This document shows positions 1 to 16,763 of a stretch of 32,000 bases of DNA, in pieces (position 1 is the stretch's first letter; each line of letters opens with the position of its first letter). Position numbers and translations under genes: made by a program. The stretch comes from an uncultured Bacilli bacterium. GTDB lineage: Bacteria > Bacillota_I > Bacilli_A > RF39 > UBA660. Below the pieces are notes generated by a model. It did not search any database and was not told where the DNA came from. It was given only the letters and a program-made list of their open reading frames with translations. Where the stretch lies: positions 24,193 to 56,192 of the forward strand of contig CANRCV010000005.1 of the NCBI GenBank assembly GCA_947629205.1. The letters are read 5' to 3'.

Positions 1-228
1 ATGTGTAATAATCAAAATAACAACACAGAAAATACAAGTTGCATTGCTGAAATACTAAATGTTATTTTAGTTCTTCAACAAAATGCTTGTCCAGATAGTT
101 GTTTAGATTCTTGCGACAGACCAATGCTTGGTGGTGGACCAAATTGTCTTATTTGCAATACTAGACCAATAATGCTATATACTTGCTGTGGTAATGGAAC
201 TCCATGCCTTTGTACAGGAACAAGGTAA
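1..228 (+). CDS. CotZ/CotY/ExsY-family spore coat/exosporium protein, N-terminal half (gene interrupted by insertion)
   Basis: The product is Cys-rich and has the family N-terminal layout (SCIAEILNVILVLQ ... CPDSCLDSC ... NTRPIMLY). The ORF stops one codon after the AAGGT core at 222..226. Its C-terminal half is found at 7272..7505. Confidence 0.8.
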   Translation: MCNNQNNNTENTSCIAEILNVILVLQQNACPDSCLDSCDRPMLGGGPNCLICNTRPIMLYTCCGNGTPCLCTGTR

Positions 229-367
229 AATTATAGTTTTTTTAAAATTGCACTTTAACACAATTTAAGTTTTTAATAATAGATAGAATAAAAAGTATAG
301 TGTGAATAATAGCCATAGCTTAAAAAGGGCTATTTTATATTTTATAGAAAGGAATAAGTGTAATTTT

Positions 368-937
368 ATGGAACAAAGAAATTGTATAAAAAAATTAAAA
401 ACATATAATAAGAGAGTATCTTATGGTAAACTATTAGAAAAAAGGATTATATATTTGAATGGTAAGATTGATGATATACTAGCAGGAGATATAATATATC
501 TGCTTTTTAAATTTGATATGGAAAATCATAAAGACATAACAATGTTTATTAATTCTATAGGAGGTTCAGTAAGTAGTGGACTTGCTATATATGATGCTAT
601 GAATTTAATAAAAAGTAATATTGTAACAATCGGTATTGGAAGGTGTACTAGTATGGCGAGTATTTTATTAATTAATGGTACAAAGGGAAAAAGGTGTTTA
701 ATGCCAAATGCAGAGGTTATGATACATGAAATATCTTATCATACTGGTGGGACAATTACTGATATATATGAGTCTTTAGAGCATTCTAAAAAAGTAAATG
801 AAAGGCTTCTTCATATTATAGCCAATAAAACGAAAAAAAGTTTAGGACAAATAAGAAGAGAAATTGAAGGTAAAGATGTATGGATAAATGCAGATATGGC
901 CTTAAAATACGGCTTTGTTGATAAAGTGTTAAGATAA
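368..937 (+). CDS. ClpP-family serine protease paralog
   Basis: The product shows the ClpP pattern RIIYLNGKIDD ... INSIGGSV ... GRCTSMAS (Ser) ... MIHE (His) ... GKDVWINADMALKYGFVD (Asp). The start is uncertain: a GTG at 302 is possible, but the ATG at 368 gives a typical ClpP N-terminal length. Confidence 0.85.
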   Translation: MEQRNCIKKLKTYNKRVSYGKLLEKRIIYLNGKIDDILAGDIIYLLFKFDMENHKDITMFINSIGGSVSSGLAIYDAMNLIKSNIVTIGIGRCTSMASILLINGTKGKRCLMPNAEVMIHEISYHTGGTITDIYESLEHSKKVNERLLHIIANKTKKSLGQIRREIEGKDVWINADMALKYGFVDKVLR

Positions 938-956
938 TACAAGGGAGTGGTAGTAC

Positions 957-1274
957 ATGAAAAATGAAATAAACGATATTATAAAAATGATTGACAAACA
1001 CTTTAAAAAAGTAGTATGGAATTCTGAACCACCAGTTCATGAAACTGATATGAATTTACTAGTATTAGCAACTAAAATAATTGCTATGCGTGATACTATA
1101 GAAACTATTGATATAAAAAAATCAGTAGATAAATTACTTGCAGACATGCAAAAAACATTTCATATGCCTTATTATAGTAATGAAATTCAACAATGGTTAG
1201 ATAAAGACATAATGAGACATTCTTTAATATTAAAAATATATGAGAAGATAGGAGCCCTTCGTTATTACTATTAA
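957..1274 (+). CDS. hypothetical protein, likely co-transcribed with the ClpP paralog
   Basis: A GGGAGTGG ribosome-binding site lies 7 nt upstream of the ATG, and the gap from the clpP-like stop is 19 nt. I recognise no motif in the product. Confidence 0.6.
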   Translation: MKNEINDIIKMIDKHFKKVVWNSEPPVHETDMNLLVLATKIIAMRDTIETIDIKKSVDKLLADMQKTFHMPYYSNEIQQWLDKDIMRHSLILKIYEKIGALRYYY

Positions 1275-1307
1275 AAATTAATTTCTAGGCGAATTTCTTT
1301 CATTTAG

Positions 1308-1329
1308 TATAATTGGGTTATAATTGGGT
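1308..1329. repeat. perfect tandem duplication of TATAATTGGGT (2 x 11 bp)
   Basis: The copies were read directly at 1308..1318 and 1319..1329, in the intergenic region upstream of the XRE gene. Each copy contains a TATAAT hexamer. Confidence 0.6.
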
Positions 1330-1438
1330 TAAAATGTCTGAAAACGTATAAAAATACATAAATTAAGCAAACTTATAGGCGACATACAAATTTCAATTTA
1401 TTTGTCATAATAATCACAAGGAATGTGGTGAGGCTATT

Positions 1439-1675
1439 TTGAATATTTATGATAAGAATACGTTATCTCATTTAGTAAGAAAGAATATTCGTAAGTATCG
1501 TAAAATGAGAGGATATACTATGCAAGAATTAGCAGACAAAACAGGTCTTACACACCAATATATTAGAGATTTAGAATGTTTAAATGTAGATAAAACACCA
1601 ACACTTGAAAGTTTGGGAAAATTTGCAAATGCTTTAGAAATAGACATAAGACAATTATTTGATGATATAGATTAA
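1439..1675 (+). CDS. XRE-family helix-turn-helix transcriptional regulator
   Basis: The product has an HTH_3 pattern (IRKYRKMRGYTMQELADKTGLTHQYIRDLE). The start is TTG, 6 nt after a GGTGAGG ribosome-binding site. Confidence 0.85.
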   Translation: MNIYDKNTLSHLVRKNIRKYRKMRGYTMQELADKTGLTHQYIRDLECLNVDKTPTLESLGKFANALEIDIRQLFDDID

Positions 1676-1679
1676 AATG

Positions 1680-2462
1680 TTATTCAGTAATTGTTAAACT
1701 ATCTAAATAGATATTTTCGTTAGACATTGTAAAAGTAAGCAAATAAGTATTAAATAAATCTTGATTTTTGGTTGCAATTTTATCAAAATCACACTCTAAA
1801 AAATCATAGTAATCATAGGAGCAAAATTCATTTTTTGATAACTTTGTTATGATTGGATTAGTTTGATTTTGAGCATCTTCGATAGTTTTATATAATTCTT
1901 TAGGTTCTTCCCCTGTATCTAAATATGCAGTATACATTCTAGTAAAATAGACTAATACTTTATCTTCTTTTTTTGTGGCTTTGATTACGGTATTATAACT
2001 ATTAAGGTCGCCTACACCATGACCATAAGGAGATTGAACAAAAGATTCGGTTTTAGCATTGTAAGAGTATAGTATATCGTTATCGTAAGGTGAATATAAA
2101 TTTTCCATATCAATAGTAGCATTTTCACCAAAATATTTTTGAGTAATCATTAATAGATTTTCTTTTGTTAATGACAATTTTGAACCATCTCCCATATACT
2201 CATTATTAGATATAATATTGAATATAATTTGTAATTTTTGTTGATTATCTAGGTCATTGAATGAGAAATTTTCTAAACTATATGGAATACTACTCAATAA
2301 TAAATTGATTTTATTTGTTTCGTTATCGCTTAATGTATATTCTTCTTCCACTATTTCGTGAGTTTCATTAGTAGTATCAACGTTATTGTTAGACATTTCT
2401 TTAGTATTACAGCCAGTTAAACAAATAATACAGATAAATAAACTTATAAATTTTTTTAACAT
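1680..2462 (-). CDS. lipoprotein, function unknown
   Basis: The signal peptide has a lipobox (MLKKFISLFICIICLTGC). A GGTGA ribosome-binding site precedes the ATG at 2462. The ORF track starts 4 codons earlier. Confidence 0.75.
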   Translation of the reverse strand: MLKKFISLFICIICLTGCNTKEMSNNNVDTTNETHEIVEEEYTLSDNETNKINLLLSSIPYSLENFSFNDLDNQQKLQIIFNIISNNEYMGDGSKLSLTKENLLMITQKYFGENATIDMENLYSPYDNDILYSYNAKTESFVQSPYGHGVGDLNSYNTVIKATKKEDKVLVYFTRMYTAYLDTGEEPKELYKTIEDAQNQTNPIITKLSKNEFCSYDYYDFLECDFDKIATKNQDLFNTYLLTFTMSNENIYLDSLTITE

Positions 2463-2556
2463 AATTATCACCATTTCCTATTACAATTATTGCATAATTA
2501 TTTTTTAGGAGCAAGGGGAATGATAGTTTAATATGTAAAAAAATGTCGCCTGGCGG

Positions 2557-2585
2557 TTGAAATGCAAAATGGTTTATGCTAAAAT
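2557..2585 (+). promoter_or_regulatory. sigma-A-type promoter candidate for the membrane-protein genes
   Basis: TTGAAA (2557..2562), a 17-nt spacer, then TAAAAT (2580..2585). Confidence 0.4.
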
Positions 2586-2613
2586 CTTTATAAGAAGGAA
2601 GTGAGAAAATAAT

Positions 2614-2967
2614 ATGGCGTTAATTAAATGTAGCGAATGTGGAAACGAGATAAGTGATGAGGCGGCAATATGCCCTCAGTGTGGACATGATTTGTATTCT
2701 AATCAAAAAGTGAATGATGATGAAAGTAAAAAAGGTACGTATGGTTTAGTGGGAATGATATTAGGATTGTGTTCGATTATAGCATGGATTATTCCTCTTT
2801 TTGGATATCCATGTACGATTGTTGGAATTGTATTTAGTGCAAAAGGTTTAGAATCAAAAAATAAAAATAAAGCAATAACAGGATTAGTTTTATGTATTAT
2901 ATTTTTAATATTTACTTTAATTAATTCTATAGTTGGTGCTGCAATAAGCACTGAAGGTTATTATTAA
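2614..2967 (+). CDS. zinc-ribbon protein with DUF4190-like transmembrane region
   Basis: The N-terminus has a CxxC...CxxC ribbon (CSECGNEISDEAAICPQCG), followed by two hydrophobic helices of the DUF4190 type. Confidence 0.75.
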   Translation: MALIKCSECGNEISDEAAICPQCGHDLYSNQKVNDDESKKGTYGLVGMILGLCSIIAWIIPLFGYPCTIVGIVFSAKGLESKNKNKAITGLVLCIIFLIFTLINSIVGAAISTEGYY

Positions 2968-2985
2968 CAAAAGGAGTGAAAAAAT

Positions 2986-3246
2986 ATGAAAGAAAATAAT
3001 AAAGGATTAGCAATCGCGGGACTTGTAATTAGTATCGTTAGTATATTTATATTTCCAATACTTGGTATTTTGTCAATTATTTTTGGAGCGATTGTAATTA
3101 ATACTAATGAAAATAAAGAACCATGGTTTAAACCAGTTTGGAAATATAAAAATAAGACTTTAGGATATGGTAGATATTCTTTATTAGTTGGAATTATTGA
3201 TATTGTATGGGTTGTAATCAATTATTTTATTTTAATGGCAATGTAA
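2986..3246 (+). CDS. small DUF4190-like membrane protein
   Basis: A GGAGTGA ribosome-binding site is present. The hydrophobic core GLAIAGLVISIVSIFIFPILGILSIIFGAIV is typical of the family. Confidence 0.7.
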   Translation: MKENNKGLAIAGLVISIVSIFIFPILGILSIIFGAIVINTNENKEPWFKPVWKYKNKTLGYGRYSLLVGIIDIVWVVINYFILMAM

Positions 3247-3324
3247 TTTTTAGTTTATCTAAATATTAGTTTATTAAATATTTGAAAATATAACAAATAA
3301 AAGGATTTTTAGAGGAAAAAATTT

Positions 3325-3771
3325 ATGAAAAAAGGAATAATTGCATTAGTTATAGTTTTATCTATAATTACTATTGGAATAGTGGTATTTTATAAATCCC
3401 AAAATAGTTATCTTGGTTCTTATGTTTCAGAAAATGGTTCTATAATAGTTTTAAAAGAAAATGGAAAATGTGAGATTACAGTTGTAAATACAGTAGTATA
3501 TACCAATAGTAATACTTGTACTACTGGGAAATGTTCTCAACTTGTAGGTGGTTCAAATTATCACCCTGGTCTTCCAAGTAATTATGTTTCTAAACGTAAT
3601 GAAACTAGTAAAGCAACTAGTTGTACTTATGAGTTTTATAAAGATTATATATTACTTACTCATAATATTGATTATGTTCAAACCAATAAATATAACTTTT
3701 CCGAACATTATAAATATCTAACATGGGAAGGGCAAGGAAAATTATATAAAAAAGACAATACTAAAAAATAG
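3325..3771 (+). CDS. membrane-anchored or secreted hypothetical protein
   Basis: An N-terminal TM/signal segment (MKKGIIALVIVLSIITIGIVVF) is present, and a GAGGAAAA ribosome-binding site lies upstream. Confidence 0.65.
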   Translation: MKKGIIALVIVLSIITIGIVVFYKSQNSYLGSYVSENGSIIVLKENGKCEITVVNTVVYTNSNTCTTGKCSQLVGGSNYHPGLPSNYVSKRNETSKATSCTYEFYKDYILLTHNIDYVQTNKYNFSEHYKYLTWEGQGKLYKKDNTKK

Positions 3772-3807
3772 TATAATTATTTGAGATACCATTATATTTA
3801 ACGTTAA

Positions 3808-3844
3808 AAAGATATAAAAATAAAGATTTTATATCTTTTTTTTT
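3808..3844 (+). terminator. intrinsic terminator
   Basis: A perfect 12-bp stem (aaagatataaaa / ttttatatcttt) with a 7-nt loop is followed by a T-run. Confidence 0.7.
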
Positions 3845-4187
3845 ACAAAAAATTATGTATTGCTAAAAGTTAGCCATAGTAAAACCATATAATGTAATAG
3901 AGAGCTTAAAAGAAAAATTAAAAATGTTTTAAATATTTAATGAAATAAGCTTTAATGATGATTAAAAAATGTAAAAAAAGTGTCAAAAAATGTCGATTTT
4001 TCAAAAAAAATAAACATTTTGTAATTAGAAAATATAAAAGTACGCTTTTCGAACCATATAGTTATAATAGGACAAGGATGAAATTGTCTTTAACTATTCA
4101 TAAAAGCAAAAATATCTTTTGTGAATATATAGGAGGTGATATACATGTAATCGTGAAGATACCCAAGGATAACAAGGAATAACTCAA

Positions 4188-5090
4188 TAAGCTAAGACTA
4201 CTCATTTGTAATCATAGTGAGGTGGAATGCGTCCTTGCGATGTCCTATACCCCAGCAACTTAGATGACAAAAATAGAAATAAGGTACATTTGATTTTGGT
4301 ACTACTTGCATAAGCGAAACGCAGACAACACAGATGCCAAGACTTAATACTGTTTACCAGTAGTGGAACCCGAAGCTTCAGAGGACTGCACTTGTGAAGC
4401 ACCTAGTAGGAGCCCTGTTAGTAGAAAACTAATAATACTTACTAGAGTACCAAGTAGTGGGCGGAAACACCAGCTCCCAGATACCGTGTCGTGGCGTTGA
4501 CGGTGGAGAGTGCAGGGATAAAGAACCATAGACGACAAAAAATATTACTATAATGAAGACTTATTAAAATTCTTATTAGACTATTTCCATTTATTCCGCT
4601 ATTTCCATTTATTAGTAGACTTCCATTTCTATTTTGAGGAAGATTTAAAATTTGAAGAGGAGATAGCAAAAAAGGAAGAGGAGATAGCACAAATTAATTT
4701 TATTAAGCTAATAGAATGTTAAAACTATTAGCACCAGTTGTGGGGGGATAAAGTAATAGCACCCCTACTAGGGTACAGTTTAACTTTAGATTATTTATTT
4801 ACATAGCAACTCAAAGCGATTTATCGGATTGTAGCACACATTATTTAATTTATAAGCTAATAGCATGCTAAAACTATTAGCACCGGCAGTAATATAATCT
4901 TATAGTCATTCTTGACTTGAGATACTGAGGTACAGTTGAGCAATAGTAATTATCTTTATAAGTTGATAGAATGCTAAAACTATCAACACCAGCAGTAGTA
5001 AAGTCAAGCAAACATAACTGTCTTGACATACTGGGGTACAGTTCAGCTAAAGTTTATTAAACAGGAGAGTGGATACTCCTAAGAATAAAC
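4188..5090 (+). ncRNA. large structured RNA candidate, class unassigned (GOLLD/ROOL-like in size and context)
   Basis: The block has no credible ORF and is much richer in G+C than its flanks (4190..4545). It contains many local helices. A long helix with U-G pairs works only on the + strand. Three tandem modules show stem covariation. A hairpin (gtttatt/aataaac) closes the block at 5052..5090. Confidence 0.5.
4704..5043 (+). repeat. three tandem structured modules (4704..4780, 4853..4937, 4959..5043)
   Basis: Each module starts TAAGYT. It then has an 8-bp hairpin with the conserved loop AATGYTAAAA or CATGCTAAAA, followed by CACC(A/G)G, a variable long hairpin (CAGTA...TACTG) and a terminal GGTACAGTT. 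Confidence 0.7.
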
Positions 5091-5513
5091 ATATCCAAAC
5101 AATTTGATTCATTAATTATATTGAATCACTAACTATAGTTGCTAAATCTTATGATAATTTGATTAAGAATATTCTAAATTTATTTCCATGGAATAGATTA
5201 TTCTTATATCATAAAGTGACTATTAAATTATTTAACTTTAAACAATAAAAAATTTACTAACAGTACAACAGGATACTCTAGTAAAATTAAATTGTTTGAT
5301 AGTTTATATTATGATAGACATAGACCAGTTGTGTAGAAATGTATACAGCTATGCAACTGGTAGTATCTATCATTAATTTTATTAAATGTACAAAATATAA
5401 ATTTGAATCTAAAAAGCAAAAATAAATTATAAATCCGCAAAAAATAAAAAATAAAAATCATAAAAGTGATTTTTGCTTTACACATTCAATAAAATTAAAT
5501 AGGAGATGAGGAT

Positions 5514-5630
5514 ATGTTAATAAAAAATTACTACTGTGTGAACGGTAAAACGTTCCAAGAGATTATGGAAGAATTCTTTATTCAATACTGTAATAGAAAA
5601 ATAAATACGGATATTGTGAAATATGCTTAA
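5514..5630 (+). CDS. small ORF (38 aa) immediately upstream of the recombinase gene
   Basis: An AGGAGATGAGG ribosome-binding site precedes the ATG. The product is MLIKNYYCVNGKTFQEIMEEFFIQYCNRKINTDIVKYA. I recognise no family. Confidence 0.35.
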   Translation: MLIKNYYCVNGKTFQEIMEEFFIQYCNRKINTDIVKYA

Positions 5631-5680
5631 AAACGTTATAATAGTAATTGTTAAAGTGCAATTATCTATGAGGAGGTATA

Positions 5681-7234
5681 ATGAGAGATAATAGCATATT
5701 TAATGTAGGTCTGTACTTGCGTTTATCTAGGGAAGATGAAAATACAATTGAAAGTGAAAGTATTAGCCATCAAAGACTTTTATTAGAAGATTATGTCAAA
5801 GTCAATCGTTTTAATCTAGTTGATGAATATGTTGATGATGGATATACTGGAACAAATTTCACTAGACCAGATTTTAATCGTTTAATTAGAGATATCGAGG
5901 CTGGTAAAATTAATTGTGTAATTACTAAAGATATGTCTAGATTAGGTAGAGATTATATCTCTACAGGTTGGTATTTAGAAAAATACTTTCCTGAGCATAA
6001 TGTCCGCTTTATATCAATAAATGATAACATTGATACTATTACTGGACAATTAGATGATGTAGCACCTTTTAAAGCCGTAATCAATGATTATTATGCTAAA
6101 GATATATCAAATAAAGTTAGAACATCTATTACCGCTATGAAAAAACGAGGAAAATTTCTTGGAGGTATTCCACCATATGGTTATAAGTTTGCAAGTGAAA
6201 AAAATCACCAACAATTAGTTATTGATGAGGTAGTTGCTCCAGTAGTTCGTAGAATGTTTCAAATGTATGCTAATGGAAAAAGCCTTTATGAAATAGCAGA
6301 TACTTTTAATCAAGAAAAAATTCCCATTCCAAGCATCTATAAAAACATAAAACGTAAAAAATCAGAGGCTTATGGTTTATGGCAAACAAGAACTATTGAT
6401 GAAATTCTAAAAAATCCTACATATATAGGTAATTTAACCCAAGGTAGAAGAAGAAAAGTTAACTATAAAAGTAAAAAAATTGTTAGACTACCTAAAGAAG
6501 AATGGATTGTTGTAGAAAATACTCATAAACCAATTATTGACAAAGAAACTTTTGATAAAGTTCAAAGCATTTATGAAAAGAATAAAAATAGAAAATGTAC
6601 TAAAAACAATGTTCTATTTGGAGGCTTTTTATATTGTAAAGAATGTGGACATAAAATCGGTATAAATAAGACACATGAAAAATATTACTGTTGTTGTAAT
6701 TACTACAAAAGATTTTCAAAACAAGGTTTATGTACACCTCATTCTATTCCTTATGATTTATTAGAAAAGGAGTTATTAACAGAAATTCGTAAAGAATGTA
6801 AGAAAAGTGTTCGAGAAGAAAAGTTTCCAGAACTATTAAAAAACAATAACAAGAAAAAACAAGCCATTGATAATATTACCAAATTAATTGCTAAAAAGAA
6901 CTTAGAGATAGAGCAAAATAATAAAGCAGTGGATGATTTATATATTGCTAAATTAAAACAAGAATTAGATAACGACAGGTATAAAAGTATTTATAACAGG
7001 TTAAATGAAGAATTAAATAAATTAAAAAATGAACTACACATTTTAAAAAACGATTACAACAAGTTAGCAAATGAAGAAAACGAAAGTAATCAAATAGCCG
7101 ATATGACAATGATTAAAGAGTTCTTAGAATTAAAAGAACCATCTAGAGAATTAATGGCTAATTTAATAGACAAAATTGTAATTGATGAAGATAAACATAT
7201 TAGTATTTATTACAAAATTAGAAGGTATAGTTAA
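5681..7234 (+). CDS. large serine recombinase (SpoIVCA/TndX-like)
   Basis: The product has a resolvase catalytic domain (GLYLRLSREDE ... DDGYTGTNFTRPDFNRLI ... VITKDMSRLGRD), a recombinase domain, a Cys-rich zinc ribbon (CKECGHKIG...CCCNYY...C) and a long coiled-coil C-terminus. A GAGGAGG ribosome-binding site is present. Confidence 0.95.
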   Translation: MRDNSIFNVGLYLRLSREDENTIESESISHQRLLLEDYVKVNRFNLVDEYVDDGYTGTNFTRPDFNRLIRDIEAGKINCVITKDMSRLGRDYISTGWYLEKYFPEHNVRFISINDNIDTITGQLDDVAPFKAVINDYYAKDISNKVRTSITAMKKRGKFLGGIPPYGYKFASEKNHQQLVIDEVVAPVVRRMFQMYANGKSLYEIADTFNQEKIPIPSIYKNIKRKKSEAYGLWQTRTIDEILKNPTYIGNLTQGRRRKVNYKSKKIVRLPKEEWIVVENTHKPIIDKETFDKVQSIYEKNKNRKCTKNNVLFGGFLYCKECGHKIGINKTHEKYYCCCNYYKRFSKQGLCTPHSIPYDLLEKELLTEIRKECKKSVREEKFPELLKNNNKKKQAIDNITKLIAKKNLEIEQNNKAVDDLYIAKLKQELDNDRYKSIYNRLNEELNKLKNELHILKNDYNKLANEENESNQIADMTMIKEFLELKEPSRELMANLIDKIVIDEDKHISIYYKIRRYS

Positions 7235-7271
7235 GTTAAATGTTTATCTTGTTTAGTAACAAAGGTGGAGT

Positions 7272-7505
7272 ATGCCAACTACAAAAGATTCAACAGCAAC
7301 TTGTAGTGAAGCAAGTACAACTTGTTCTAATGTATTTAGAGTAGAAAAAGTGGATGGAAATTGTTGCACTTGTCGTGTTCTTGCAGATAATCCAGATACC
7401 ACTAGCTTAAATCCATACATTGCTACAAATTCATTTTTTACAATTAGTTTAGATTGCATTTGTGCTATTCGTTGTTTAACCGATACATTTGTAGAATGTG
7501 TATAA
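7272..7505 (+). CDS. CotZ/CotY/ExsY-family protein, C-terminal half (coding frame is open from 7266 after joining)
   Basis: Family C-terminal motifs are present (NVFRVEKVDGNCCTCRVL and FFTISLDCICAIRCL). The frame is continuous with 1..225 if the element is removed. Confidence 0.8.
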   Translation: MPTTKDSTATCSEASTTCSNVFRVEKVDGNCCTCRVLADNPDTTSLNPYIATNSFFTISLDCICAIRCLTDTFVECV

Positions 7506-7645: not shown

Positions 7646-7852
7646 CTATCCATTTTTATAATACGTAACCATTATTTTTTCTTGTTCATAAAAAGCATGA
7701 ATTAACGTATCTTCTATTTCTTGTTGTTGTTCTAAAGATAAAACTGGTTTTTTAATTTTATTTTTTTCTTTTAAAATAGAATCAATAACGGTTTTATTGG
7801 AAACTAAACTTTCAAAAGGAAGCCATTTTATAATTCCTCGATCTTTATTCAT
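7646..7852 (-). CDS. YolD-like protein
   Basis: It has the IKWLPFESL motif, is small, and overlaps the stop of the upstream Y-family polymerase gene by 8 nt. This is the arrangement known from yolD-uvrX type operons. Confidence 0.75.
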   Translation of the reverse strand: MNKDRGIIKWLPFESLVSNKTVIDSILKEKNKIKKPVLSLEQQQEIEDTLIHAFYEQEKIMVTYYKNG

Positions 7853-9098
7853 GATGTCCCCCTATTTTTTGATTTCTTTCTTTGATAGTGGAATCATCTA
7901 ATAAACTAGAAGCTTTTAATAAACTATTTTTTCCATATTTTTCTTTTAAAGTATCTACTGTTTTATGCATTTGTTGCTGTTTTTGAAGTTGTTCAAAATC
8001 TTCAAACAAATTTAGTTGTATCCCTTCTTTTTTACTTAGTTTCCCTAAACATATAGTAATTTTTCGAATGGGTAAATCTTCATAGTAACGATCAAAAAGT
8101 AAGAAAATGTTTTTTAAAAGAAGAGATTCATCATCCGTTGCTATTTCTAATCGAGTATGATGATAAAAACCATCTCCAATGGTTTTAGAATACCCAATTC
8201 CTAAAGCAACAGAGGATGTCTCAAAATGATGAGCACGCAAACGAGTAGTTAAAACACCTAACATTTCTTCAATAATTAATTTAGCATTTTCAGCATAGTA
8301 ATCTTTAAAAAGAACTTGACTATGACTAAAAGATTGTTCTTTTTTAATAGAATCAAAATCACTTATTTTAGAGGTATCTATTCCATTAGCATGATTCCAT
8401 AATTCTTCTCCCATGACTCCAAATTTATCTTTTAGTTTATTCATATCATACTTGGCTAAATCTCCTACTGAAAATAAATTTAAATCATTTAAATGTTTTT
8501 CCATACGAGAACCAATTCCCCACATCTTCGAAAGGGGAGTAATACTCCATAATTTGGTTTTAATATCCTTTTTGGTCCACTTAGCAATATTTTTGGGCAT
8601 GTGTTTCGCTTCAATATCCATAGAGACTTTTGCAAGTAGCATATTAGGGCCTATACCACAAGTTGCTGTAAGACCGGTTTTTTCTTCAATCGTTTTTAAA
8701 ATATCGATAGCAAGTTCTACATCCGTTTTTTGATATAGTTTTAAATAATGCGTAACATCTAAAAAACATTCATCAATGGAATAAATATGTAAATCTTCTT
8801 TAGCTACATAATCTAAATAAATACTGACTACTTCTTTTGATTTTTCTAAATAAAGTTTCATACGAGGAGGAGCAATGGTATAATGAATTGATTTTGGAAT
8901 TTCATAAAGGCGAGTTCTTCCTTTGATACCTTGCTTTTTTAAATAAGGACTTACTGCTAAAGTAATGGCTCCATTTCCTTGAGTAGGATTAGCAACTACT
9001 AAAGGAGTGGTAAAAGGATCTAAATGACGAGCAATACATTCAACAGATGCAAAAAAACTTTTTAAATCAATACATAAAAAATGTCTTTCTTTTTCCAT
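7845..9098 (-). CDS. Y-family (UmuC/DinB-like) translesion DNA polymerase
   Basis: The product has the N-terminus FLCIDLKSFFASVE, the motif YSIDECFLDVT, and the palm and little-finger layout. The start was moved to the ATG at 9098, which has a GGAGGAAAAAT ribosome-binding site. The ORF track starts 20 codons earlier. Confidence 0.9.
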   Translation of the reverse strand: MEKERHFLCIDLKSFFASVECIARHLDPFTTPLVVANPTQGNGAITLAVSPYLKKQGIKGRTRLYEIPKSIHYTIAPPRMKLYLEKSKEVVSIYLDYVAKEDLHIYSIDECFLDVTHYLKLYQKTDVELAIDILKTIEEKTGLTATCGIGPNMLLAKVSMDIEAKHMPKNIAKWTKKDIKTKLWSITPLSKMWGIGSRMEKHLNDLNLFSVGDLAKYDMNKLKDKFGVMGEELWNHANGIDTSKISDFDSIKKEQSFSHSQVLFKDYYAENAKLIIEEMLGVLTTRLRAHHFETSSVALGIGYSKTIGDGFYHHTRLEIATDDESLLLKNIFLLFDRYYEDLPIRKITICLGKLSKKEGIQLNLFEDFEQLQKQQQMHKTVDTLKEKYGKNSLLKASSLLDDSTIKERNQKIGGHHE

Positions 9099-9222
9099 AT
9101 TTTTCCTCCAAATATTTGTTCGTATTTTCATTATAAGAAAAAGATAGAAAAACTGCAACTGGTAAGATTTAACAAATGTATTTTTTATTGAAAAAATAAA
9201 TAAATTATTATATAATCAAAAC

Positions 9223-16686: not shown

Positions 16687-16763
16687 GGCCTGTTGGTGAA
16701 GGGGTTTAACACGCCACCCTCTCAAGGTGGTATTCACGGGTTCGAAACCCGTACAGGCTACCA
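16687..16763 (+). tRNA. tRNA-Glu, anticodon CUC, CCA encoded
   Basis: A manual cloverleaf gives acceptor ggcctgt/acaggct (G1-U72), anticodon stem ccacc/ggtgg, loop c-t-CTC-a-a, and T arm acggg-ttcgaaa-cccgt. The sequence is near-colinear with the Bacillus tRNA-Glu sequence as I recall it. Confidence 0.85.

Follow-up and report, generated by a model that had tools for sequence, protein, structure and literature searches.

Type III antitoxin arrays (ToxI/CptI) are tandem structured RNA repeats carried on mobile elements, each unit of which is a folded structure (a pseudoknot in ToxI) that binds one protein; there are also pseudo-ToxI mimics of phages, and orphan arrays can serve as decoys. The put sites of HK022 are made up of two adjacent stem-loops of ~70-85 nucleotides (nt), occur in more than one copy per element with differences in sequence, and lie upstream of terminators. 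GOLLD and ROOL, in turn, are large ornate bacterial RNAs often found in prophages (PMC12286853). In this work, we describe three tandem modules from the genome of an uncultured low-G+C Bacillota (a Bacilli bacterium, GenBank assembly GCA_947629205.1, contig CANRCV010000005.1, positions 24,193 to 56,192), a stretch of 32,000 nt hereafter called the window. The modules lie on the same strand at 4704-4780, 4853-4937 and 4959-5043, inside a putative sporulation gene-intervening element, and every feature that a first-pass annotation of the locus had ascribed to them is present in the sequence. They are real and unclassified, albeit weakly supported, structured repeats, which lack the defining features of those families against which a test could be made.

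Comparison with described systems

Like the ToxI/CptI arrays, the modules are tandem structured repeats on a mobile element. Nevertheless, ToxI and CptI repeats are near-identical, ~34-45 nt long and arranged head to tail directly before a toxin endoribonuclease gene, whereas the modules measure 85-106 nt, are 76-91% identical to one another and are irregularly spaced (149 and 106 nt between successive starts). No toxin gene follows them: downstream there are only open reading frames (ORFs) of 26-38 amino acids (aa) and then a recombinase gene, with no toxin match in PADLOC or Pfam. As tandem diverged paralogues with conserved loops and variable parts, they also resemble the LhrC1-5 small-RNA cluster of Listeria and the Qrr cluster, but the members of those clusters are independent genes, each with its own promoter and intrinsic terminator, while the modules have no U tract behind their hairpins and no consistent promoter.

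GOLLD and ROOL share with the modules the condition of non-coding cargo of phage-like or mobile DNA in Bacillota, richer in G+C than its surroundings, and the multimers that the first-pass annotation suggested for the modules would be a further parallel. Unlike those RNAs, which are conserved across many genomes, the modules are orphans and the G+C-rich segment upstream of them is not unusually stable; moreover, the covariance models of GOLLD, ROOL and OLE gave no match at E up to 10. The resemblance to put (two abutting stem-loops, more than one copy, terminator-like hairpins downstream) is a likeness by description, and the relatives of this element do without modules. If a candidate pairing between the loop and the tail of each module were real, the order of strands (5' strand of stem 1, 5' strand of the second helix, 3' strand of stem 1, variable hairpin, a short linker containing a C, 3' strand of the second helix) would be similar to that of P1, P2 and P4 in hepatitis delta virus (HDV)-like ribozymes. 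The modules, however, have no equivalent of P3/L3 or P1.1, and there is no room for P3/L3 because one nucleotide (A) separates the 5' strand of the candidate second helix from the 3' strand of stem 1. A pseudoknot of 6 base pairs (bp) made by a hairpin loop, as the candidate one would be, is also known from pistol ribozymes, but its partner there is found inside the P2-P3 internal loop, unlike in the modules. Rfam scans of the modules returned neither HDV-like nor pistol families.

Two kinds of DNA repeat were also compared and rejected. The first-pass annotation had argued against a clustered regularly interspaced short palindromic repeat (CRISPR) array, and rightly so: spacing and identity are those given above, the variable parts are hairpins, where a CRISPR array would have unstructured spacers, and there is no cas gene in the window (no Cas domain in ORFs of at least 80 aa over the 32 kb, and nothing from PADLOC on the element proteins). 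Integron attC sites have complementary R'' (RYYYAAC) and R' (GTTRRRY) ends, a gene cassette between one site and the next, and an IntI tyrosine recombinase. In the modules, the GTT that follows GGTACA fits GTTRRRY in only one of the three copies, no complementarity exists between the 5' ends (TTTATAAG) and the 3' ends, the 21- and 72-nt gaps between modules hold no ORF and the sole recombinase is of the serine type.

Sequence and folding of the modules

Each module opens with TAAGYT (TAAGCT at 4704 and 4853, TAAGTT at 4959), followed by a hairpin with an 8-bp stem, which is GCTAATAG/CTATTAGC in modules 1 and 2 and GTTGATAG/CTATCAAC in module 3, and a near-invariant 10-nt loop (AATGTTAAAA, CATGCTAAAA and AATGCTAAAA in modules 1, 2 and 3). 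The junction CACCRG comes next (CACCAG, CACCGG and CACCAG, in the same order) and leads to a second hairpin, whose closing pairs are CAGTA/TACTG in modules 2 and 3 and AGT/ACT in module 1. The invariant end GGTACAGTT occurs exactly three times in 32 kb, at module ends only, and an 18-nt core, ATAGNATGYTAAAACTAT, also has three occurrences without mismatch and is found nowhere else in the 32 kb.

In module 1 (4704-4784, plus strand; TAAG at 4704-4707), stem 1 pairs 4707-4714 with 4725-4732 around the loop at 4715-4724; the ACC at 4733-4735 then pairs with the GGT at 4772-4774 around a variable hairpin, and GGTACAGTT occupies 4772-4780. In module 2 (4853-4941, plus strand) the corresponding positions are 4856-4863 with 4874-4881 for stem 1, 4864-4873 for the loop, 4882-4884 with 4929-4931 for ACC and GGT, which enclose CAGTA/TACTG and the inner hairpin, and 4929-4937 for the end. 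Module 3 (4959-5047, plus strand) has its compensated stem 1 at 4962-4969 with 4980-4987, the loop at 4970-4979, ACC at 4988-4990 paired with GGT at 5035-5037, and the end at 5035-5043. While the module coordinates of the first-pass annotation stand, the true repeat unit is longer than it proposed, with ~6 nt more on the 5' side (TTTATW) and ~15-20 nt more on the 3' side (GTTNARCWWWAG.TTAT), which leaves no gap between modules 2 and 3 and gives them a period of 106 nt. The inner variable arms of modules 2 and 3 are ~57% identical, and in the three-way alignment the loop and the single-stranded tails are better conserved than the stems.

When each module is folded as RNA, the minimum-energy structure is the expected plan of two hairpins, with ACC and GGU paired and the second stem following directly on the first, without an unpaired base. 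Fold z-scores against dinucleotide shuffles are -2.5, -3.1 and -3.25 for modules 1, 2 and 3 (the energy of module 1 being -23.6 kcal/mol), and the module folds are retained when 4556-5110 is folded as a whole. Taken alone, hairpin 2 has plus-strand z-scores of -1.1, -2.9 and -2.4 in modules 1 to 3, and of -1.5 on the minus strand of module 2; the sequence of its variable inner arm differs from copy to copy, yet it folds in every copy.

RNAalifold and pair counting on the three-way alignment gave 16 pairs, with 97.9% of the cells paired. Three of the pairs are altered on both sides, two of them in stem 1 (module 3), as the first-pass annotation had pointed out, and one in the second helix (module 1). 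A sliding control, in which the partner columns were shifted by 1 to 3, destroyed the pairing and left no double change. In a simulation with four random substitutions in the 16 positions of stem 1, all eight Watson-Crick pairs were kept with a probability of 0.0017, and with a probability of 0.015 when only transitions were allowed. Compensation in stem 1 exceeds chance, yet it comes from one diverged copy; the signal, though real, is small. When the 32-kb window was searched with a covariance model of the three copies, these were recovered with 97, 116 and 120 bits, the next best match reaching 14 bits. Dispersed palindromic repeats (REP/BIME, BOX or MITE-like) are scattered in many copies over the intergenic regions of a genome; within the 32 kb the modules have no further copy. 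Hairpins kept by compensation, together with a loop and tails that outconserve the stems, support the earlier proposal of a folded single strand rather than a protein-binding site in duplex DNA.

In all three modules, the loop sequence GYUAAA could pair with UUNARC, a stretch whose first bases are the last ones of the invariant tail. The candidate partners are GTTAAA at 4718-4723 and TTTAAC at 4779-4784 in module 1, GCTAAA at 4867-4872 and TTGAGC at 4936-4941 in module 2 (5 of 6 pairs), and GCTAAA at 4973-4978 and TTCAGC at 5042-5047 in module 3 (also 5 of 6 pairs). The Y of the loop covaries with the R of the tail, being U-A in module 1 and C-G in modules 2 and 3, and one central pair is intact in module 1 only. 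The loop strand is flanked by 3 nt before and 1 nt after it, which corresponds to the topology of an H-type pseudoknot having hairpin 2 as an insertion. We treat this pseudoknot as a hypothesis because it is short and A/U-rich and was found post hoc. Additionally, the R of CACCRG and the purine facing it (columns 39 and 82) are A·G or G·A in every copy. When the candidate pseudoknot and these two columns are counted, pairing accounts for nearly all variable positions in the conserved blocks.

Strand and type of molecule

The G·U pairs of the modules, found in modules 1 and 2, exist on the plus strand only. For 4556-5110 the z-score is -5.4 as plus-strand RNA, -4.0 as minus-strand RNA and -3.05 as plus-strand single-stranded DNA, whose centroid structure loses parts of the modules. 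These predicted stabilities weakly favor plus-strand RNA over single-stranded DNA, although not decisively. A small RNA read from the minus strand was rejected, with its poorer fold and no U tract, and so was a promoter for each module, as no -35 recurs consistently and transcription begun 7 nt after TATAAG would leave stem 1 truncated.

Search for relatives of the modules

The first-pass annotation knew of no described family with this layout, and neither Rfam nor ARAGORN returned one for the modules. With Rfam 15 (4227 covariance models) at gathering threshold, the whole window gave only a tRNA-Glu at 16687; a permissive search of 3700-5750 gave only miRNA-like chance matches (E of at least 0.2), and 4690-5060 and 4100-4560 gave nothing at E up to 10. 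ARAGORN found only the same tRNA-Glu (16687-16763), and the module ends do not pair, so that no tRNA or tmRNA cloverleaf can be drawn. A distant-mode BLAST of 4100-5100 against phages and plasmids found no match.

Pattern scans in which the stem was left free gave 10 matches in IMG/VR, none of them paired, 29 in 185,579 species genomes, which were chance matches or repeats within coding sequence with at most 6 of 8 pairs, and 116 in JGI metagenomes, none with 8 of 8 pairs or the 3' motif. A scan of IMG/VR with a pattern of the 3' half gave, among the matches listed, chance matches only. Diverged relatives would escape these collection scans, because exact matches to the unpaired motifs were required. 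The covariance model (R1), when run on 16 loci (13 recombinase relatives at the cotZ-like site and three from IMG/VR), reached 18.9 bits at best, with many broken pairs. A 911-aa chimera of all open six-frame segments of 4130-5060, meant to catch spurious ORFs over homologous DNA, had no match at E up to 10 among 5.8 billion proteins. Assemblies with this lineage (ENA, Logan), among them the gut metagenome ERZ27249148, in which the same strain occurs, were reached through proteins only, and the sole match of the neighboring 148-aa protein is a 99%-identical fragment on a 1.2-kb contig that ends before the modules.

No homologue was found in any of these collections, and the case for function therefore rests on three paralogues of one genome. 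The overall reading of the first-pass annotation, that is, a function as folded RNA or folded single-stranded DNA, is in this sense borne out in part: the folded single strand is supported, and a function would have the backing of those three copies only.

The ORF-free stretch around the modules

The modules are found within a 1.9-kb stretch (3772-5513) that contains no credible ORF, opens after the terminator hairpin of the upstream gene (3806-3840) and has no six-frame protein relatives. A TATAAT at 4063-4068 is a perfect match to its consensus but has no -35. At 4131-4150 on the plus strand, AGGAGGTGA (4131-4139) is followed after 5 nt by ATG-TAA, without an ORF; it is the strongest Shine-Dalgarno match of the window, with a duplex with the 16S 3' end of -17.1 kcal/mol compared with -6 to -13 for the window genes. 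Some Bacillus transcripts carry 5' stabilizers known as STAB-SD (PMC4113751), and by analogy 4131-4150 is a possible stabilizer of this kind at the 5' end of a non-coding transcript, or a possible ribosome-parking site.

The G+C-richer segment follows at 4150-4545 (~400 nt, 37-49% G+C against 27% for the window, no credible ORF). It has no Rfam family and no six-frame protein relative, and its folding z-score is about 0; it may be part of the module transcript. Long-range pairings between this segment and the modules (I7 and I8) were rejected, a 9-bp match being at chance level for 2 kb. Directly 5' of module 1, 4573-4690 can form a long imperfect plus-strand hairpin of ~110 nt, in which three 18-nt direct repeats (..GCTATTTCCAT..) pair with two 21-nt direct repeats (..GAGGAGATAGC..). 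Its fold has -31.3 kcal/mol and a z-score of -3.4 on the plus strand against -22.9 kcal/mol and -1.7 on the minus strand, a difference due to G·U pairs that exist on the plus strand only.

Downstream of the modules there is a near-perfect terminator-like hairpin of 23 bp (5308-5376, plus strand; z-score -3.9), followed by TTAATTTTATT, the two together spanning 5308-5390 and the U-rich tract being present on the plus strand only. It has ACCAGTTGTG in common with module 1, carries an ATG in its loop as hairpin 1 does, and gives a weak covariance-model match (12.6 bits, E 0.46). This hairpin may be the end of the proposed plus-strand unit, as a terminator, or a degenerate fourth module. Local alignments for further degenerate modules upstream or downstream (p of at least 0.1) and short-word BLAST matches for antisense targets within the window (E of at least 0.1) led to the rejection of both ideas.

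The carrier element and its relatives

The carrier element (~7 kb, 227-7266, plus strand) has an AAGGT core on both sides (222-226 and 7262-7266) and splits a cotZ-like spore-coat gene into an N-terminal half at 37-204 and a C-terminal half at 7272-7505. Joining the two cores restores the reading frame, with the junction ..TGTRWSMPTTK.., and the WSMP junction can also be reconstructed in the related locus L013. A large serine recombinase of 517 aa is encoded at 5681-7234 (Resolvase, Recombinase and Zn_ribbon_recom domains in Pfam). With a recombinase at one end, a split gene and a shared core that restores the frame, the carrier has the sequence hallmarks by which we class it as a putative sporulation gene-intervening element. 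According to the abstracts of their descriptions, skin, SPbeta and gin are gene-intervening elements of sporulation genes (PMC5595907, PMC4191935, PMC5025042). The likeness concerns the carrier only, which has, as they do, a terminal large serine recombinase and a split sporulation gene whose frame excision would restore; the target differs in being cotZ-like here, and those abstracts mention no tandem structured repeats.

The element also contains a ClpP-like gene at its left end (302-937), a gene for a 78-aa XRE-type helix-turn-helix (HTH) protein with an HTH_3 domain (1439-1675), a lipoprotein gene on the minus strand (1680-2474) and genes for membrane proteins. The ClpP-like protein matches phage head-maturation protease families (phrog_94, 7.6e-37); other virion genes are absent from the element, and this gene may mark a decayed prophage or satellite. 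Just beyond the right end of the element, at 7646-9158 on the minus strand, there are genes for a YolD-like protein (68 aa) and a Y-family polymerase of the UmuC/ImpB type, a pair that resembles yolD-uvrX of SPbeta. No Cas, reverse transcriptase, HUH/Rep, relaxase or toxin protein was found in the element or the window.

A 38-aa ORF (5514-5630) lies directly upstream of the recombinase gene, and a promoter-like site is present just upstream of the latter, at 5614-5642. The ORF is present in most relatives, with kin of 37-38 aa in L011 (5834-5950), L013 (5898-6011), L163 (1134-1250), L164 (3307-3423) and L167 (7834-7950), and was not called in L015-L017. Its Shine-Dalgarno sequence is a good one (-9.8 kcal/mol), Pfam and PHROG gave no match, and its product could be a directionality factor or a leader peptide.

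In other metagenomes, the same cotZ-like gene is occupied by an element in at least 13 related loci, with recombinases 62-71% identical to the one described here. Their cargo differs and includes an AAA_25 ATPase, reverse transcriptase, HTH proteins and RelBE. The only DNA that they have in common with our window is 5490-5680, and the modules are found in none of them. Since the elements that occupy this site in related loci have accessory cargo of other kinds and no modules, the modules are best regarded as cargo and not as core machinery, and any RNA made from them probably stands outside the recombination machinery. The idea that the ORF-free stretch holds a decayed gene of a relative, AAA_25 or another, was rejected, as tblastn matched only the 38-aa ORF there. 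An RNA-guided recombinase was rejected too, the variable arms having no significant identity or complementarity to either att region.

Among the sister elements, L015 has at the same cotZ-like site a 428-aa reverse transcriptase (RVT_1; 899-2185 of L015) beside HTH and AAA_25 genes, as do L016 and L017. In L163 (2913-3684) and L167 (9652-10238), the interval from the recombinase gene to the right element end holds RelB/ParE-YafQ toxin-antitoxin genes. Three direct repeats of 45-50 nt (AGTGAAA..AGTAA.TTATTTG.TATAG..) are located upstream of the AAA_25 gene of L011 (4336-4516) and may be iterons or a regulatory array.

Possible roles of the modules

The reading that we favor, tentatively and at less than even chances, takes the modules for paralogous folded domains of a non-coding cargo RNA transcribed from the plus strand, probably used as iterated docking or assembly units. 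In such an RNA, the 8-bp stem would be under a constraint of pairing only and the 10-nt loop under a constraint of sequence; in the arm closed by ACC/GGU the inner hairpin would be free to vary, while the single-stranded tail is kept invariant. The loop may pair with the tail in an H-type pseudoknot into which the variable arm is inserted. A transcript would then offer three near-equivalent units to one sequence-specific RNA-binding partner or for self-association. Because a constrained loop and tail, stems constrained in pairing only and one free arm have the look of docking or assembly units, we infer that the RNA might act in trans as a multivalent scaffold or decoy. Its role could be likened to that of the other accessory cargo of the element family, such as toxin-antitoxin pairs and reverse transcriptase. 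The suggestion of the first-pass annotation that the modules are repeated binding sites for one protein, or multimer-forming units, is a reasonable guess.

Several results weigh against this reading. Only three sequences are available, a single copy supplies two of the three compensated pairs, and if transitions only are simulated and G·U is allowed among the pairs, pairing is retained with a probability of 0.145, which is not rare. With no homologue in any collection searched, there is no conservation or covariation across species. No sigma-70-type promoter is predicted on the plus strand upstream of the modules, no candidate RNA-binding protein was found in the element, and the candidate pseudoknot (6 bp, A/U-rich, found post hoc) is mismatched in modules 2 and 3. 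Nor is there support for one long ornate RNA, because the upstream G+C-rich segment is not unusually stable.

An appreciable, if lesser, chance goes to a functionless tandem duplication that is specific to the lineage and decaying, with hairpin-preserving changes produced by quasi-palindrome correction or by chance. Such an origin would fit an orphan of three copies that is absent from Rfam, phages, plasmids and, at the level of patterns, three large collections, and from all 16 related-recombinase loci, the segment not being common to the relatives; the transitions-only null model is permissive as well. Decay, however, would not be expected to produce the mosaic conservation observed, in which loop and tails are near-invariant and the inner arm of modules 2 and 3 has diverged so much further, nor to leave each variable arm still able to fold, nor to bring compensation or correlated change to three separate helices. 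Quasi-palindrome correction, for its part, leaves the conserved unpaired loop and the complementarity of loop and tail unexplained.

We consider it unlikely that the modules act in cis as hairpins of single-stranded DNA, for instance where replication, transfer or priming of the excised element starts, with an enzyme binding the hairpins and acting on the adjacent invariant GGTACAGTT. Watson-Crick compensation is neutral as to the strand, and the usual layout of nick sites, the substrates of HUH enzymes, is a hairpin followed by an invariant single-stranded motif, as in the modules. The context is that of a mobile element, iteron-like direct repeats lie directly upstream (4573-4688), and related elements have a replication-type AAA_25 gene with 45-50-nt direct repeats at the equivalent place. 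Nevertheless, neither the element nor the window has a Rep, relaxase, HUH or primase gene, the G·U pairs of the plus strand become G·T mismatches in DNA, the fold is weaker (z-score -3.05 against -5.4) with module parts lost in the centroid, and three tandem origins would be unusual.

A bolder form of the cargo-RNA reading, which we regard as a long shot, would make the modules an undescribed class of pseudoknotted RNA domains carried by sporulation gene-intervening elements. These domains might act on a protein of the host or of a phage, as its multivalent decoy or scaffold, or else be self-processing units, similar to ribozymes, which would release RNAs of unit length by cutting the transcript at the invariant TAAG and ACAGUU junctions.

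It is improbable that the modules are a cis-regulatory leader of the excision genes comparable to put, whose RNA would modify the polymerase or recruit a factor and so carry transcription past two hairpins (5052-5090 and 5308-5390) as far as the 38-aa ORF and the recombinase gene. The plus-strand order of modules, terminator-like hairpins, 38-aa ORF and recombinase gene fits such a leader, as do two stems that abut without an unpaired base. The relatives, however, have the same unit of 38-aa ORF and recombinase without modules, only 5490-5680 being common to them, the promoter-like site at 5614-5642 is just upstream of the recombinase gene, and three copies would be redundant.

More doubtful still is that hairpin 1 is a duplex-DNA operator, GCTAATAG-N10-CTATTAGC, for a dimeric repressor such as the 78-aa HTH protein, in the manner of tandem phage operators. 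There are indeed perfect 8-bp inverted repeats in three tandem copies, an HTH_3 protein encoded in the element and -10-like hexamers (TATAAG/TATTAAG) before each repeat. A duplex operator is argued against because the loop is better conserved than the stem, so that the spacer outconserves the half-sites, which is the reverse of what operators do; moreover, the half-sites change, with compensation, in module 3, the 18-bp centre-to-centre distance is out of helical phase, the conserved unit reaches ~60 nt past the repeat and includes a second structured arm, and no consistent -35 or plus-strand promoter was called there.

Tiny leader or signaling peptides started at the ATG of the hairpin-1 loop (MLKLLAPVVGG, MLKLLAPAVI and a 29-aa product) are hardly credible, even though the ATG is in frame in all three copies and the non-stem differences are synonymous (TTA/CTA, CCA/CCG, GTG/GTA): coding is rejected because the three ATGs lack a Shine-Dalgarno sequence (duplex energies of 0.2, 0.4 and -2.8 kcal/mol, compared with -6 to -13 for the window genes) and the changes that compensate each other in the stem alter the amino acid (L to S, A to T), and in addition the lengths (11, 10 and 29 aa) and C-termini differ and pairing explains the differences in loop and junction equally well.

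At present, the value of this single-genome orphan is mainly that of a seed for a covariance-model search of gut metagenome assemblies. Should the modules be functional, as proposed for the cargo RNA, they would represent a new structured-RNA family, a compact RNA of ~85 nt in which the loop is defined, one arm varies freely and a pseudoknot may form. The recognizable cargo of the relatives that we fetched consists of protein genes (toxin-antitoxin pairs, reverse transcriptase and a replication-type ATPase); functional modules would be a case in which a small recombinase-borne element, interrupting a sporulation gene, has non-coding RNA as its accessory cargo.

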